Assembly: GCA_021852265.1 (NCBI GenBank)
Contig: JAJZNV010000008.1
Location: 1 to 52,058, forward strand
Reading direction: 5' to 3'
DNA length: 52,058 nt
Origin: Nanobdellota archaeon
GTDB lineage: Archaea; Nanobdellota; Nanobdellia; Parvarchaeales; Parvarchaeaceae
Part shown: piece by piece, positions 1,745-37,839 of the stretch
Numbering within the stretch: the stretch's first letter is position 1
Layout: each line of letters opens with the position of its first letter
Made by a program: the position numbers and the translations under genes
The notes under the pieces: model-generated
Databases searched by the model: none
What the model was told of the DNA's origin: nothing
The model's input: only the letters and a program-made list of their open reading frames with translations

Positions 1745-2587
1745 ATGGGTAAGCTAAAAGTCTGTATAGATATCGGCGGTACGAAAACCATTGTCGCTAT
1801 ATTAAATGAGCAACTTAAAATACTTAATTGGACGGAGTTCTTTACGCCTGATAACAAAGAGGCATTCATCTCATTATTGAATGAAAAACTGGACAAAATC
1901 CCAAAAAAACCTTCTACAATAAATGTCGCTATACCTGGAAGGATAGATGAAAATGGGAGAGTGGTTATGTCACCTAATTCGCCATTGCTCGGACTGGATA
2001 TTAGAGCCTTATTACAAAAAAAATTTAAGACGGTAACAATATCCAACGATGCCAATTGTTTTGCAGTTTACGAATTATTCAAAGGTAAGTTAAAGCATTG
2101 CAGCCATGGACTTATTATTGTATGGGGCACTGGAATTGGTGGAAGTTTGGTGATAAACAGAAAGATATACTCTGGAAAAGGATTTGCATCTGAACTCGGT
2201 CATATAGCAGTCTTTGATAAGGACGGAGAGGATATAGAATCTATGGTGGGCGGTGCACATCTAAAGACACACTATGGCAATTCGGGTGCCGAACTGAACG
2301 CATTGGCTATGGCAAATAATGAAACCGCACTGCTCGCATTCGAAAAAATCGGGAAGATTTTCGGAAGGTTGATATATTCCTTAATCTACGCATTTGACCC
2401 TGAGAGAATCGTATTGGGCGGCAGCATGGTAAAATCATGGAAATTTATGAAGAATGCTGTAGACGAAGAGATAAAAAAACACAGCATCCGTGGCGGCACA
2501 AAGATTTCAATAAATACGGATAAATTCTATGTTATAAAGGGCTGTTACTTCCTAGATAATTATGAAAAAACTTATAATAAATTATAA
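1745..2587 (+). CDS. ROK-family sugar kinase (probable glucokinase)
   Basis: DIGGTK, NDANC, GTGIGG and ELGH motifs. Confidence 0.88.
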   Translation: MGKLKVCIDIGGTKTIVAILNEQLKILNWTEFFTPDNKEAFISLLNEKLDKIPKKPSTINVAIPGRIDENGRVVMSPNSPLLGLDIRALLQKKFKTVTISNDANCFAVYELFKGKLKHCSHGLIIVWGTGIGGSLVINRKIYSGKGFASELGHIAVFDKDGEDIESMVGGAHLKTHYGNSGAELNALAMANNETALLAFEKIGKIFGRLIYSLIYAFDPERIVLGGSMVKSWKFMKNAVDEEIKKHSIRGGTKISINTDKFYVIKGCYFLDNYEKTYNKL

Positions 2588-3239
2588 GGCATATCGTGAA
2601 GGTATTGATCACGGTGAGGGTATCGCAAAGATTGCAAATACCGTGGCAAAAAAGTTTAATGTAGACATCATTGTCTCGCCACCCTTTACAATGCTAAAGG
2701 AACTTTCGAAGATGTGTAAAACGATAGCGCAGGGCGTCGACGAGATAGATCCTGGTGCATTTACCGGACACGTAAGTTGGTACGAGATAAAGCAAAGTGG
2801 TGCAATGGGCACACTTCTCAATCATTCCGAAGAGAGATGTATAGATAGTAAAAACGGTGCTATTGTATATTCTGCACTGAAGAAAGCCATAGACCTATGT
2901 ACGCAAAATGGATTGGAAACTTATGTTTGCGTCCAAAATATAAAGGAAGCTCTCGAGGTATGTAAGATGAGACCAACTGCAATTGCGTATGAACCGCCTG
3001 AATTAATTGGTGGCATCATTTCGGTGTCCGATGCTCAACCGGGGATAGTAAAGGAATTTATAGAGCTGGTAAATAAAAATTGCAGTTCTATACCTCTTAT
3101 AGGAGCAGGGATAAAAACGGCGGCAGATGTTAAAAAGGCCGTGGAATTAGGAAGTGCAGGGATACTTGTTGCATCTGGAGTAGTGAAATCTAAAGATTTC
3201 AAATCTGCGATATCAGAACTGGCTGAACCCCTTGCTTGA
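2562..3239 (+). CDS. tpiA: Triosephosphate isomerase, archaeal type
   Basis: NYKAY, NHSE, YEPPELIG catalytic motifs; GILVASGVVK; 225 aa. Confidence 0.95.
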   Translation: MKKLIINYKAYREGIDHGEGIAKIANTVAKKFNVDIIVSPPFTMLKELSKMCKTIAQGVDEIDPGAFTGHVSWYEIKQSGAMGTLLNHSEERCIDSKNGAIVYSALKKAIDLCTQNGLETYVCVQNIKEALEVCKMRPTAIAYEPPELIGGIISVSDAQPGIVKEFIELVNKNCSSIPLIGAGIKTAADVKKAVELGSAGILVASGVVKSKDFKSAISELAEPLA

Positions 3240-32724: not shown

Positions 32725-34209
32725 TTAATGATACATATTTAGTTCGGCTATTACGCCTTTTCTGTAAGTCGTAATCTCAGATTCTATAAAGTCATCATAG
32801 ATACTATCCAGTTTATTTATAAAAACCAGTCCATCTTTTATGTATTTCATTTTCATCTCTTTCGCATATTTACGCAGTGCTGCATTGAAAGTTTTCCCAG
32901 AAACTTCTACATCAGATCTAATCTCACTTAGCCTACACAATGCATATCCGGGCTTAATATGGTATCCAACTAAATCATGTACAGCTGATGTCTTCTTTTC
33001 TATTGCACGCTTACAAATAGCAATTGTAGCCCTCCCGACAATCTTTCCATTAGACTTTATTACTGCCCAAAAAACGGAAGGATTTAATAGATACTCTTTC
33101 GTATAGGTTATATTAACCCCTCCTGGAGAAAGACATGAATTAATATTTTGCAATGATTCCATCTGAGTTTCCAGATCTGATGGACTTAGGTGAAGCGTTA
33201 ATGCTTTTCTGCGGTTTAAAATATAGGACTTGGTCGGCCCCTTCTTGTATATTTTTGCGCCTGAAAAAATTGGCGCAATCTTATCATCGAGCTCTTCAAG
33301 CCAATAGGGCAACCTCTCTATTTTAGTTATATCATTTACGGAATATTTTTTAAAAAAATAGTCCTTTACAGTGTTAAGGACCTTTGTGTATGAGATATTT
33401 AGATCTTCATTCGGTAGAACATTCACTCTATTACCCATAGCAATCCCTAAAAAGTATGCTAGATTTATCAATCGTTCCGCTTTTTTCACACCGAACTCGC
33501 ACACTTTTATTTTACTTATGAACTCGCTGATTTCATTGTATGAGCTACTCACAATACTATTTAGCTTCCTAATGGAATTTTTATCACGCCTACGCATAAG
33601 ATAGCTAAAGATTCCGGCCGATTTTTCTGGACCGAATATGGAATAGACGACCTCATTAACTTCAGAAAGTTTGTCTGCTCCGTCCTCATCTTTTTTATTG
33701 ATAAATGACTCTTTAGCGAGCAGAAAGTTCTTGTACGCCAACACAGATAGATTATTTCGAAAATCTAGATAAGATGGTGTGTAGAAAAAGTTATCGCTAT
33801 GTATATTCAACTTATTATTGCATCGCGTCACATCTGGATCCGATATGAAGCGAATGAACGTTTCTGAAATTTCTGGACTGCAAGTATTAGATAATATACT
33901 ATCCAAAGTACCTCTATCCATATCCATGCAAGATCCGACATCATCGTAATTATTCAATGCTGATACTATCACAGAAAGATTTTTCTCATAATTTCTGTCA
34001 ATCTCTTTTCCTGAAGAATGCAATCCGGTCAATATACGTTCAGCGAGGCTTCCTATGTATTCTGGCTTGCACCGTTCTATCTGGTTATTTATCTCATCTG
34101 ATGCCGCTAGTTTATCGATTATTGAAGCAAAGGCATAATCGGTATCTGTACGCAAATCGTGCCAAAACATTCGCCTAGTCTCATATTTGCTAGACGTATT
34201 GTCAACCAT
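32725..34209 (-). CDS. Hypothetical protein (494 aa), helical N-terminus and alpha/beta C-terminus
   Basis: Long uninterrupted ORF; no family recognised. Confidence 0.75.
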   Translation of the reverse strand: MVDNTSSKYETRRMFWHDLRTDTDYAFASIIDKLAASDEINNQIERCKPEYIGSLAERILTGLHSSGKEIDRNYEKNLSVIVSALNNYDDVGSCMDMDRGTLDSILSNTCSPEISETFIRFISDPDVTRCNNKLNIHSDNFFYTPSYLDFRNNLSVLAYKNFLLAKESFINKKDEDGADKLSEVNEVVYSIFGPEKSAGIFSYLMRRRDKNSIRKLNSIVSSSYNEISEFISKIKVCEFGVKKAERLINLAYFLGIAMGNRVNVLPNEDLNISYTKVLNTVKDYFFKKYSVNDITKIERLPYWLEELDDKIAPIFSGAKIYKKGPTKSYILNRRKALTLHLSPSDLETQMESLQNINSCLSPGGVNITYTKEYLLNPSVFWAVIKSNGKIVGRATIAICKRAIEKKTSAVHDLVGYHIKPGYALCRLSEIRSDVEVSGKTFNAALRKYAKEMKMKYIKDGLVFINKLDSIYDDFIESEITTYRKGVIAELNMYH

Positions 34210-34280: not shown

Positions 34281-35711
34281 TTAAACTGATAAATCTTTAA
34301 ACACCTCATTCAAATCCGTTGTTGATTTCCCATCAGCGTCAGCAATCTGCTGCGACAGTGGCGGCTTTATCCCACGCTTTGCGAGTCTATCTTCGAAGGT
34401 GTCCTGGTTTTTCCACTGAAAGAACAATCCAGTATTTAGATTTTCGGGGGTCTCATTCAGGATCATATTTATTGCTTGTAACTTCTTTTTGTTTACCTCT
34501 TCGAGATTCGTTGGGTCATGCACAATACCATCATAATCTTGCGGCAAGGGATGCAAGTGCTGTCCAAACCAGGCAGTATTGGTGAATTCTGGATTATAAG
34601 TTGGACAGCCCTGCTGGATATCGATTAGCGCAAGACCTGGATGCTTTATCGCTTTTACCATCAGATCGGTTTGCTCCTTTACATTATAACTTTGCGTTCT
34701 TGCAACGAAAGTATAACCCGAGAGTATGGCGATAGCGAGGGGGTTCAGAGGACCATTTATATTCGGCTCCGGAATGCCCTTTACCTTTCTTCCTTCCGGT
34801 AGAGTCGGGCTTGCTTGGCCTTTTGTCAATGCGTAAACCCCGTTATTATGAACGAATAATTTTATATTTACATTTCGTCTACCAGCACTTATGAAATGAC
34901 CAACTCCAATACCATATGTATCGCCATCGCCACTGTCGATTAGCACATTTAATTCTGGATTTGCAAGTTTTATGCCTTCTGCGAATGGAATCGCCCTCCC
35001 ATGCAAAGTATGCACGCCATTTACATTAACTAAGTGCGGAAGTTTAGATGAACAGCCTATCCCAGAAACGATAACAGTTTTATGCGGATCTAAACCTGCA
35101 CCGGCTATTGCACTCTTTACAGCAAGAACGATACCGCTATCGCCACAATTGTGTAGTGCTGCGAATTCGGTAACGTAAGAATTGGCATCTTCTACTTCTA
35201 GATTATAGACTACTCCAGAAAATTTCTCTAATTTTTTCCTGCTTATCCTAAAAAATGTATATTCTTTCTCAAAGTCATTATAAGTGTCGGCTTTTGAGTT
35301 CTTAACTAACTCGTGACATAATGCGGTTGATGGATATGCAACTAAATCTCCTTCAGATACTTTACTTGCTGGTTTCCATTCTAGTTCAAAAACAGATTCC
35401 GAAATTTTCGTTGCTACAAAGATAGGGTGTTCCTCAGTAATCAATAATTCGTTTGTTCCATTTATGGAAATTTTGAATATTTTTCCATGATGTAGATGAC
35501 TCATCGTTTTGATTACTTTGTGGTATAACCCATCATGCCCTAAAACCTGCTCGCCTTCTTTTACTAGTGCTATCTCCTTCAATCCATTTACAGAAAGAAT
35601 CTTAGTTTCTCCACTGACACACCCTGGACACCAATCATTCAACTCATTAGAACTAAGACTTGTAGGTATTACAGGAATTTTATGGTTGTCATTTTTTGGA
35701 TCAGTAAGCAT
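34281..35711 (-). CDS. korB: 2-oxoacid:ferredoxin oxidoreductase beta subunit, intein-containing precursor
   Basis: WCPG|CG, SGIGCSS, HGRAIP, GDGD TPP motif, NNGVYALTKGQASPT, CPTYN. Confidence 0.95.
   Translation of the reverse strand: MLTDPKNDNHKIPVIPTSLSSNELNDWCPGCVSGETKILSVNGLKEIALVKEGEQVLGHDGLYHKVIKTMSHLHHGKIFKISINGTNELLITEEHPIFVATKISESVFELEWKPASKVSEGDLVAYPSTALCHELVKNSKADTYNDFEKEYTFFRISRKKLEKFSGVVYNLEVEDANSYVTEFAALHNCGDSGIVLAVKSAIAGAGLDPHKTVIVSGIGCSSKLPHLVNVNGVHTLHGRAIPFAEGIKLANPELNVLIDSGDGDTYGIGVGHFISAGRRNVNIKLFVHNNGVYALTKGQASPTLPEGRKVKGIPEPNINGPLNPLAIAILSGYTFVARTQSYNVKEQTDLMVKAIKHPGLALIDIQQGCPTYNPEFTNTAWFGQHLHPLPQDYDGIVHDPTNLEEVNKKKLQAINMILNETPENLNTGLFFQWKNQDTFEDRLAKRGIKPPLSQQIADADGKSTTDLNEVFKDLSV
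35148..35621 (-). mobile_element. Mini-intein (158 aa, no homing endonuclease) in the oxidoreductase beta subunit
   Basis: Starts Cys (CVSGETKI), block B TEEHPIF, block F VYNLEVED, ends LHN followed by Cys+1; removal restores WCPGCG. Confidence 0.95.
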
Positions 35712-37512
35712 TCAAAATCACCTTTTTCTCGCCCCTCAGTATTCTATCTAGTGCGCCTCTAACTTCATCATATCTCATTGGACGCCCATTATATTTGAGG
35801 ATCTGGTTCTCTATTACTATACCAGTTTGCGAAGCGATGTGCTGTTTTAATTGACCACTTATATTTTGCTCTACACAAACAACTTTCTTTGCTCCTTTAA
35901 TAATTGACGCTATTTCTTTAGGCAAAGGCTCTATTAATTTTATCTGTAAAAATGTCATATTGGGAGTTATTGCCTCCATTATCGCATTTGACGTTCCTCC
36001 CCAACCTATGACAAGTAAATCGCTTTTACTTGGATCAGCATTTGGTCCAAGTAATCTAAACTTCTCTTCTTCTGGTAGCTGTGAGAGTATGAGTTCTGTC
36101 TTTTGAGTACGTTTCTCCATCATTTTATTTCTATTGCTAGTCTCCTCGGAGATATGTCCCCATTCTTCGTGTTCATCGCCTGTGGTCCATGTTATTGCCG
36201 TGGGATCACCAAGTGCTATGCGTGGAGAGATGTTATCCGGAGTAAACGCGTAACGTTTATAATCCGGACCGGCATTTTGTATCAATTTTCCCCGATCAAT
36301 TCGATAGCTTTCTTTTATCTTCTTTACAAAATTAACGTCCATACTAACCGAGGCCTGAGAAAGGCTTTTCTCGCTTAAGATGATTACAGGTAACTGAAAC
36401 TTCTCTGCATAATTGAATGCTAAGGCAGTAACACTTATGGATTCCTCAATACTGCCGGGCGCAATAACCATTCTTCCATAGTCACCGTGTCCCATATGCA
36501 TTGCAAATAGAAGGTCTGCTTGCTCAGTTCTTGTTGGCTGACCGGTAGCGGGAGCCCCTCTTTGATGATCAACAATAACAAGAGGCGTTTCTGTCATCCC
36601 TGCCCAGGTCGTAGTCTCGGTCATTAGAGAAAGCCCGGGACCTGAAGTCGACAATGAGGACCTAACTCCTGCTAACGAAGCTCCAGTAGTCATACCTACA
36701 ACTGCCAGCTCACTTTCCGGCTGAATTACTCTTATACCAAGTTCCGGATGCGATTCTATGAAATTACTTTCATCACTAGCGGGAGTTATGGGATAATAAA
36801 TTTGCATCTTGCACCCTGCTATTGCTTTCCCTAGGGCAGTTGCGGTGAATCCTTCTATATACAACAATTCTTTTTTTGGTAATTGAGATAGTTTTGCGCA
36901 CTGTGGGAAATTTTTGTTAGAAATATATTTTATAGTATTATCGGCAACAAGGACGTTCATCTTTATTACTTCTTCGGATTTGGAAGAAAAAATCTCTTTA
37001 AGCGCTTCTTCTATTTTCGAAGTAGGGAGCCCCAGCATACTAACAGAAGCAGAAACACAAATGACGTTCTTTGCAATCATAAGATCACTTGCCTTGGCAT
37101 TTGATTGTTTTGCACTTTCATTTATTATAGAATCAAAATCCAACTGGAGAACCTTAATGTCTTTTCTGGTTATCTTTGAAATATCCATTTTTGAGTCTAC
37201 TATTATGGTACCATTTGCTTTTAGGTCTCTTATGTGACCTTCGTGAATCGTACCGCCCCGTGCATTCTTCTCACCTAGAACAGATTCATCATCGGAGAAT
37301 ATAGCTAAGTCTACAAATGAACCCAGGGCACGCACATTTTTGTCAGAAACCCTTACAGTGAAAAAACTGTGCATGCCTTTTATGTTAGAGAAATATTCGC
37401 GATAGCCAAAGGTGTAATAACCCTGCTTCATTAGTATCCTTGAAAAAAGCCCTAAAGCAGAATCTATTCCGCTACCTTGCTTCCCCCCAGTCATCCAACT
37501 GAAATCAAACAT
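35701..37512 (-). CDS. korA: 2-oxoacid:ferredoxin oxidoreductase alpha subunit (gamma-alpha fusion)
   Basis: GGKQGSGI, YYPITPAS, TSGPGLSL, QRGAPATGQPT. Confidence 0.95.
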   Translation of the reverse strand: MFDFSWMTGGKQGSGIDSALGLFSRILMKQGYYTFGYREYFSNIKGMHSFFTVRVSDKNVRALGSFVDLAIFSDDESVLGEKNARGGTIHEGHIRDLKANGTIIVDSKMDISKITRKDIKVLQLDFDSIINESAKQSNAKASDLMIAKNVICVSASVSMLGLPTSKIEEALKEIFSSKSEEVIKMNVLVADNTIKYISNKNFPQCAKLSQLPKKELLYIEGFTATALGKAIAGCKMQIYYPITPASDESNFIESHPELGIRVIQPESELAVVGMTTGASLAGVRSSLSTSGPGLSLMTETTTWAGMTETPLVIVDHQRGAPATGQPTRTEQADLLFAMHMGHGDYGRMVIAPGSIEESISVTALAFNYAEKFQLPVIILSEKSLSQASVSMDVNFVKKIKESYRIDRGKLIQNAGPDYKRYAFTPDNISPRIALGDPTAITWTTGDEHEEWGHISEETSNRNKMMEKRTQKTELILSQLPEEEKFRLLGPNADPSKSDLLVIGWGGTSNAIMEAITPNMTFLQIKLIEPLPKEIASIIKGAKKVVCVEQNISGQLKQHIASQTGIVIENQILKYNGRPMRYDEVRGALDRILRGEKKVILNAY

Positions 37513-37518
37513 ATTCAG

Positions 37519-37839
37519 CTAAAGATTGTCCTTTAACCACTTTTCCAGCATCTCTTTTGAGATTGCACCAACTATCATGTTTTTTGGCTTCCCACCAACA
37601 ACCAGAAGTGTAGTTGGTATACTAGAAATGTAATATTTTGCGGCTATCTCCTCATTTTCATCCACATTTACTTTGGCTAGTTTTAATTTATCACTAAATT
37701 TTGCCGAAACTTCCTCTATTATGGGGCCGTAAAATTTACATGGACCGCACCACTCTGCCCAAAAATCAACTAATACCGGGATATCCGACTTTATAACCTC
37801 TTTTTCGAATTGCGCTTCTCCTTTTATTTTTAATTCCAT
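37519..37839 (-). CDS. trxA: Thioredoxin
   Basis: DFWAEWCGPC, SIPT. Confidence 0.96.
   Translation of the reverse strand: MELKIKGEAQFEKEVIKSDIPVLVDFWAEWCGPCKFYGPIIEEVSAKFSDKLKLAKVNVDENEEIAAKYYISSIPTTLLVVGGKPKNMIVGAISKEMLEKWLKDNL

Follow-up and report, generated by a model that had tools for sequence, protein, structure and literature searches.

The gene oforB of an archaeon assigned to the genus Candidatus Parvarchaeum encodes the beta subunit of a 2-oxoacid:ferredoxin oxidoreductase (OFOR), and its reading frame is interrupted inside the motif WCPGCGD. This locus raises the question of whether the insert is an intein that can still splice, and whether it persists as a mobile element or as a switch on its host enzyme. 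The gene lies on the reverse strand of contig JAJZNV010000008.1 (NCBI GenBank assembly GCA_021852265.1), of which positions 1 to 52,058 were analysed; this whole stretch of 52,058 nucleotides is termed the window. The source assembly of this acid-mine-type archaeon has a size of 0.78 Mb in 26 contigs and is 88% complete. The insert is with high probability a bona fide splicing-competent class-1 mini-intein, which occupies a widespread OFOR-beta site and represents the endonuclease-less stage of the homing cycle. The parts of the interrupted gene are as follows.

34281..35711, reverse strand: oforB precursor open reading frame (ORF), 476 amino acids (aa), comprising N-extein, mini-intein and C-extein of the OFOR beta subunit
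35622..35711, reverse strand: N-extein, residues 1-30, ending in ...NDWC28-P-G; C28 is iron-sulfur (Fe-S) ligand 1 and intein position -3
35148..35621, reverse strand: class-1 mini-intein, 158 aa, C31 to N188, Hint fold, endonuclease-less
35619..35621, reverse strand: codon of Cys1 (Cys31), the block A nucleophile, which forms a C-P-G-C motif together with C28-P29-G30
35427..35438, reverse strand: block B TEEH, T92-E-E-H95; its T and H do not vary among 88 inteins of this site
35262..35333, reverse strand: linker PSTALCHELVKNSKADTYNDFEKE, 24 aa, at the position of the ~210-aa LAGLIDADG endonuclease in relatives
35148..35216, reverse strand: blocks F and G, GVVYNLEVEDANSYVTEFAALHN; position 4 of block F is Asn170, the penultimate residue His187 and the terminal residue Asn188
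35145..35147, reverse strand: Cys+1 (C189), splicing nucleophile and second [4Fe-4S] ligand of the CXGC loop
34284..35147, reverse strand: C-extein, residues 189-476, with the thiamine pyrophosphate (TPP)-binding domain and the other cluster ligands C220 and C369
Spliced junction peptide with the mini-intein removed: ...NDWCPGCGDSGIVLAVK
Example of a peptide spanning the N-terminal junction of the unspliced precursor: ...NDWCPGCVSGETK

The exteins were identified as the beta subunit of a two-subunit archaeal OFOR by TIGR02177 (309.6 bits against a cut-off of 261.9), together with TPP_enzyme_C and PFO_beta_C. The profile NF041171 reached 334 bits (cut-off 423), and its match is limited to residues 188-475, after the intein. 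Mapping of ORF coordinates placed residues 31-188 at exactly 35148-35621 of the window. The C-terminus of the insert reads GVVYNLEVEDANSYVTEFAAL-H187-N188 and is followed by C189-G-D. In alignments with homologues that lack the intein, such as P0009 (318 aa, continuous WCPGCGD), the insertion falls cleanly between WCPG and CGD, and excision leaves a normal OFOR beta protein of 318 aa. The spliced sequence matches the Sulfolobus tokodaii OFOR beta chains 5b48_B (6e-87) and 5b46_B (3e-85). A preliminary description of this DNA had placed a mini-intein from C31 to N188 in WCPG|CG and had given a normal 318-aa beta subunit as the product of its removal. The placement proved exact to the base by ORF mapping, profiles, alignment and fold, and the product was borne out by the 5b48_B match and by the length of P0009.

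Pfam and NCBIfam profiles assigned an intein splicing domain to residues 31-188. The profile Intein_splicing (PF14890) matched oforB at 9e-9 and 35.7 bits in hmmscan, against a cut-off of 35.8, and at 38.3 bits, above the cut-off, in a six-frame search of the genome. TIGR01445 (intein_Nterm) spans residues 31-99 with a score of 19.3 (cut-off 24.5). No Pfam match to LAGLIDADG, HNH or any other endonuclease was found in the 158-aa intein, and in the alignment the ~210-aa LAGLIDADG block of relatives is replaced by the 24-aa linker. All five catalytic residues (Cys1, block B Thr and His, penultimate His, terminal Asn) are conserved in the insert, and each is invariant or near-invariant in the family (87-88 of the 88 same-site inteins). 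The insert is confirmed as a genuine class-1 mini-intein at WCPG|CGD, with the reservation that position 4 of block F carries Asn170 instead of the usual Asp of this class. Asn occupies the position in 87 of the 88 family members, which indicates a family-wide substitution rather than a lesion particular to the window copy. The single family member with Asp there, P0111 (687 aa, JGI), is another long-branch intein at the same site; it is also the only one of the 88 to end in G-N rather than H-N, and its block A (CVTGET...) resembles CVSGET of the window.

A model of the precursor was built by AlphaFold2 from 81 aligned homologues and has a mean predicted local distance difference test (pLDDT) score of 86. 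The pLDDT is 83-93 over residues 31-130 and 151-170, 67-82 towards the C-terminal junction and 65-70 in the linker, the least confident parts being the two junctions and residues 131-150. The model matches StOFOR beta (5b46_B, TMt 0.85) and separately matches the mini-inteins gp41-1 (6qaz, TMt 0.77) and Ssp DnaB (1mi8, TMt 0.79). The Foldseek probability of the intein part is 1.00 against the gp41-1, DnaB, RadA and Prp8 inteins. A Hint fold is thus predicted for the insert with confidence.

In alignment, C28 and C189 (Cys+1) fall on Cys12b and Cys15b of Sulfolobus tokodaii OFOR, and C28, C189, C220 and C369 are invariant in 81 homologues. In StOFOR2, Cys12b and Cys15b form the CXGC motif that ligates the [4Fe-4S] cluster, and the loop carrying this motif also makes the ferredoxin-docking surface (PMC5020499). 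Judged from this alignment, the intein lies between cluster ligand 1 (C28) and ligand 2, the latter being also its +1 nucleophile. The earlier proposals that Cys+1 is a [4Fe-4S] ligand, and that the enzyme does not mature before splicing, therefore held: the first agrees with the alignment to StOFOR Cys15b (PMC5020499), and for the second the holoenzyme would be unable to form while the two CXGC ligands are split.

Splicing would follow the class-1 standard route. An N-S acyl shift of Cys31 at Gly30 would be followed by transfer of the thioester to Cys189, cyclisation of Asn188 would free the intein, and an S-N shift would restore WCPGCGD. Only after these steps would Cys28, Cys189, Cys220 and Cys369 be able to ligate the single [4Fe-4S] cluster and shape the loop at which ferredoxin docks.

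The OFOR beta gene is present in a single copy and is the sole TPP_enzyme_C match of the assembly, in which no E1 dehydrogenase component was found. Its intein is the only one detected in the assembly by the six-frame PF14890 search. The cell's oxidation of 2-oxoacids accordingly depends on splicing of this precursor, unless a relevant gene is missing from the unassembled 12%. An identical oforB protein occurs on at least 23 contigs of different assemblies, and the sequence index lists it in 49 blocks. Two members of the protein cluster carry one substitution each (V107I and I15M), and six contigs differ from the window gene only synonymously, by one change in the intein and two in the C-extein. 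The population is nearly clonal. Because the catalytic residues are intact, the only TPP enzyme is the one interrupted and the same protein recurs unchanged on at least 23 contigs, the mini-intein is in all likelihood competent for splicing.

The insertion site is common. A scan for the junction pattern NDWCPGC[VLI], with one genome per species and therefore giving a lower bound, identified at least 79 species-level loci with an intein at the OFOR-beta site. These comprise ~10 loci of Parvarchaeota/"Nanoarchaeota", ~40 of Nitrososphaerota, ~27 of Chloroflexota/Limnocylindria and a few others. The Nitrososphaerota carriers include Ca. Nitrosotenuis chungbukensis MY2 (complete genome), Nitrosotalea, Nitrososphaera and Nitrosocaldus. 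Full-length inteins of 357-374 aa are present at 54 of the 79 loci and minis of 155-181 aa at 18, and seven are interrupted by contig ends. All the minis among these loci belong to Chloroflexota bacteria, whereas the archaeal inteins there are all 357-374 aa long and contain the endonuclease. Inteins were likewise found in ~85 of the 120 best homologue clusters, every one at C-P/A-G|C-G-D and most with a LAGLIDADG endonuclease. Two contigs binned as Candidatus Saccharimonadales (L036 and L037) also carry the OFOR-beta intein, which is 365 aa long in L036 and cut by the contig end in L037; it is unexpected for this group and may reflect mis-binning.

The preliminary description had not placed this site among the classic intein hosts. 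Its unfamiliarity stands as far as publications go, since no paper on an OFOR, KorB or PorB intein was found in a full-text literature search, but it does not extend to the genomes themselves, given the at least 79 species and ~85 clusters that carry inteins there. The main text of the intein survey of Novikova et al. does not mention the OFOR-beta site. The site is therefore abundant in public genomes yet apparently undescribed in the literature.

A search for endonuclease-containing alleles at the WCPG-CG site had also been proposed, and such alleles were found in abundance, some of them in the same genus. Among 32 other species of the genus, eight carry a full-length LAGLIDADG intein and ~18 lack an insert at the site, while no mini was seen. 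The full-length carriers include Ca. Parvarchaeum acidiphilum ARMAN-4 and Ca. Parvarchaeum acidophilus ARMAN-5, and the endonuclease motifs of the congeners (LAGYYIAEG and GLWRGDG) look intact. Among the best 120 clusters, the 79 loci and the 32 congeners, the window mini-intein is the only endonuclease-less archaeal form at the site. Two congeners, G015 (C63, C97) and G030 (C6, C15), have an intein-less oforB and, on a separate contig fragment, an intein N-terminal junction. This double signal suggests mixed alleles within the population or bin.

In an extein tree of 44 close relatives, the distribution of the intein requires at least five gains or losses. The small extein subclade of the window contains one mini, one full-length and four empty alleles. 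The window exteins are ~80-89% identical to those of congeners, and the nearest extein relative, P0009, is 88-89% identical and lacks the intein. Presence is patchy both in the genus and among the closest exteins, and therefore a homing cycle is indicated rather than a fixed domesticated element. The site pattern in Parvarchaeum bears the signature of an ongoing homing cycle. It had earlier been argued that the absence of an endonuclease implied long retention or domestication. Domestication did not hold against the patchy presence, the at least five changes on the extein tree and the empty site of P0009; long retention may apply, as it would fit the long branch of the mini-intein. The element would then be a selfish homing intein, at the stage of its cycle that lacks an endonuclease. 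Its persistence may be explained by the rarity of precise loss together with a host without another 2-oxoacid oxidoreductase, and because there is no such second enzyme, selection would keep the intein splicing. The occupied site may also resist the endonuclease of congeners.

The origin of the mini-intein is less clear. The mini-intein is a sequence orphan: it shares 27-40% identity with other inteins of the site across the entire splicing domain, and no more than 45% in blocks A, B, F and G. Among 1.84 billion representative proteins, the best match had E = 4e-28 and identities were 31-48%. Inteins lodged in a multi-intein giant protein, an RmlD-like enzyme, a phage portal protein and a DNA methylase, all of them unrelated hosts, scored like same-site alleles. 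In the splicing-block tree, the terminal branch of the mini-intein is 1.1 substitutions per site long, against a median of 0.05. With so long a branch, the phylogeny is compatible with two origins: the mini-intein may be what is left of the genus intein after rapid divergence, or it may belong to a lineage that was acquired separately.

The second of these origins is the less probable, but it is the strongest competitor. The mini-intein would then not be a deletion derivative of the Parvarchaeum LAGLIDADG intein but of another lineage, and it would have arrived by recombination of an oforB segment that already bore an intein, possibly from the mini-intein clade of the bacterial Chloroflexota. 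The maximum-likelihood tree of the splicing blocks groups the mini-intein with bacterial minis, in a 100/100 set that also includes five bacterial full-length inteins, and leaves it outside the 100/100 clade of the eight same-genus inteins. However, the placement of so long a branch is unreliable, and a grouping with the genus clade is not rejected by the approximately unbiased (AU) test at p = 0.18 (AU p values 0.18 and 0.49). The exteins of P0001 and P0002 are ~80-85% identical and their inteins only ~35%, as would be expected of a separate arrival, but the flanking exteins are typical of Parvarchaeum and no relative above ~45% identity was found anywhere. The GC content of the intein (34.8%) is also inside the host range.

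Two further ideas were considered and rejected. Foreign composition was considered on the basis of an intein GC content of 34.8% against 42.7% in the exteins, but this value falls at the 8th percentile of 474-nt windows across the whole stretch and is not significant. A relocated endonuclease was rejected because the only LAGLIDADG_3 match of the genome is 24% identical to the intein endonuclease of congeners (E = 0.02) and unrelated to it. This match is a free-standing gene of 272 aa with an N-terminal helix-turn-helix and a double motif (G000:C4, locus L111, 2595-3413, reverse strand), and it overlaps the 5' end of a tRNA gene (2532-2617, reverse strand) by 23 nt.

Inteins homologous to the OFOR-beta intein were also found in another Fe-S protein. 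Four proteins (P0125, P0127, P0129 and P0132) carry full-length LAGLIDADG inteins in IscU/NifU-N scaffold proteins at GNPV|CGD; of these, P0125 shares 36% identity with P0054 across 416 aa (E = 2e-75). These sequences suggest that the family passed between two Fe-S proteins with the site P-x|C-G-D in common. The IscU insertion site GNPV|CGD is located just before the first cluster-ligand Cys. Because the homologous inteins precede that residue of IscU/NifU, it is possible that the family favours Fe-S-ligand cysteines in P-x|C-G-D contexts as insertion sites.

Several points weigh against reading the insert as a splicing-competent mini-intein in a homing cycle. Splicing is here a prediction from the gene sequence. 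Position 4 of block F is not the usual Asp, yet this trait is family-wide. The branch is very long, and the identity to same-site inteins (27-45%) is no closer than that to inteins of unrelated hosts (31-48%), so descent from the same-site endonuclease-bearing lineage is an assumption. Finally, a second oxidoreductase could have been missed because the assembly is 88% complete.

The genes around oforB form a tricarboxylic acid (TCA) cycle neighbourhood in the order sucD, thioredoxin, oforA, oforB, two ORFs of unknown function and citrate synthase. The genes immediately upstream of oforB are as follows.

35701..37512, reverse strand: oforA, alpha subunit, 603 aa, with an 11-nt overlap with the start of oforB
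37519..37839, reverse strand: thioredoxin, 106 aa, WCGPC, 6 nt upstream of oforA

The oforA gene and the surrounding TCA genes are intact, and most of the Parvarchaeum species examined keep the arrangement sucD-trx-oforA-oforB irrespective of the intein. The thioredoxin was considered as an intein-specific reductant and rejected, because the gene has the same position in intein-less congeners. In this arrangement, the thioredoxin would be co-transcribed with the ferredoxin oxidoreductase. Directly downstream of oforB lies an ORF of 494 aa (window 32725-34209, reverse strand) without a Pfam match; this ORF and the next one, of 239 aa, are retained between oforB and citrate synthase in six of six independent contigs.

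The N-terminal junction, C28-P29-G30-C31, has an N-extein Cys at -3 of Cys1 and matches the CPGC redox-trap motif; this arrangement results from the insertion site itself. The preliminary description had suggested that splicing could act as a redox-, metal- or pH-sensitive switch on central carbon flux, and the CPGC junction, which it had overlooked, is one concrete point in favour of such a putative switch. In the engineered CPGC trap, as summarised in a paper citing Callahan 2013 (PMC10772547), a reversible disulfide stalls splicing until reduction. In the MoaA intein of P. abyssi, Cys1 is tied up in a disulfide with an N-extein Cys, and the O2-labile host enzyme is not spliced until conditions become reducing (PMC10663303). 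Given the CPGC junction and the MoaA analogue, redox-sensitive splicing of the OFOR-beta mini-intein in vitro is a reasonable expectation, for which the chances appear about even.

Whether such sensitivity serves the host is a separate matter, and it is doubtful that the endonuclease-less intein is a domesticated regulator kept since it gates the maturation of the sole OFOR. A Cys28-Cys31 disulfide, or the binding of a metal or cluster at the pseudo-CXXC, would in this improbable case block the first splicing step under oxidising conditions, and the enzyme would be made only in a reducing cytoplasm. The junction is exactly the C-P-G-Cys1 of the engineered redox trap, but CPGC is automatic at the site and common to every mobile endonuclease-bearing allele. 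The P. abyssi MoaA intein offers a natural precedent (PMC10663303), and the interrupted OFOR is the only one of the cell; however, the two-subunit OFORs of aerobes are relatively O2-tolerant (PMC5020499), which weakens the protective rationale. The endonuclease is gone and yet every catalytic residue is retained, whereas the closest extein relatives lack the intein and its presence is patchy. There are no close relatives in which selection beyond splicing competence could be tested. The thioredoxin gene lies within the same operon, and the thioredoxin perhaps resets a redox gate of the intein, but the gene is there with or without the intein. It is accordingly unlikely that a natural CPGC trap or a metal/Fe-S sensor outlived the endonuclease by gating the sole OFOR, TCA flux and ferredoxin reduction.

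That the insert is a dead one in a pseudogene, with a Hint domain that no longer splices and OFOR activity absent from a cell that relies on a host like many DPANN archaea, is very improbable: the very long branch, the Asn for Asp at block F position 4 and the reduced genome of 0.78 Mb would fit it, but the 476-codon frame is intact, the five catalytic residues are all there, the Hint fold is predicted confidently, 87 of 88 family members share the Asn, the protein is identical across many assemblies with only synonymous DNA differences among six contigs, and the alpha subunit and the neighbouring TCA genes are intact.

The preferred reading therefore remains a splicing-competent mini-intein within a homing cycle. 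Most inteins have been described in proteins of replication and repair. The present one lies in a ferredoxin-reducing enzyme of central carbon metabolism, and its +1 nucleophile doubles as an Fe-S ligand. With its native CPGC junction it is a small system in which possible regulation of a host by its intein can be tested directly, and at 158 aa the mini form needs no deletion of an endonuclease. In Parvarchaeum, empty, full-length and mini sites in turn make up a natural series in which the homing cycle can be followed in an archaeon with a reduced genome. As an element it is an ordinary intein at a site common in public data, and unless its splicing proves to be conditional, it is an incremental finding. 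It is chiefly of use as a compact, native case in which to study redox-conditional splicing at an Fe-S ligand.

The LAGLIDADG inteins at the same site share with the window mini-intein the insertion point C-P-G|C-G-D, the catalytic residues, the block F Asn and the host enzyme. The archaeal ones among them differ in being 357-374 aa long with an endonuclease, whereas the window intein has 158 aa without one, is 27-45% identical to them and is long-branched. In Chloroflexota/Limnocylindria, both full-length and mini forms occur at this site in OFOR beta. The inteins gp41-1 (6qaz), Ssp DnaB (1mi8) and Mja KlbA (2jmz) are likewise Hint-only and of ~130-170 aa, but they have other hosts and less than 20% sequence identity to the window mini-intein. 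Among the structurally characterised mini-inteins, the best sequence match is Mja KlbA (2jmz, E = 0.004).

The intein of M. tuberculosis SufB is alike in that it sits in an Fe-S-related protein. Its splicing responds to oxidative or nitrosative stress. A response to metals is also reported in titles and abstracts on this intein. SufB differs in being an assembly scaffold, and its intein is not located at a cluster-ligand Cys+1 within a CXXC motif. The engineered CPGC inteins (Callahan et al. 2011, 2013; Ssp/Npu DnaE), as described in secondary accounts, share Cys(-3)-Pro-Gly-Cys1 at the N-terminal junction. In contrast to these, the motif in the window is native and supplied by the cluster-binding loop of the host, where redox dependence is a prediction. 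The MoaA intein of P. abyssi has an N-extein Cys that can form a disulfide bond with Cys1, and its host is likewise an oxygen-sensitive metabolic Fe-S enzyme. Host and site are different, and the trap is experimentally supported in MoaA, whereas in OFOR beta it is predicted from the junction residues.

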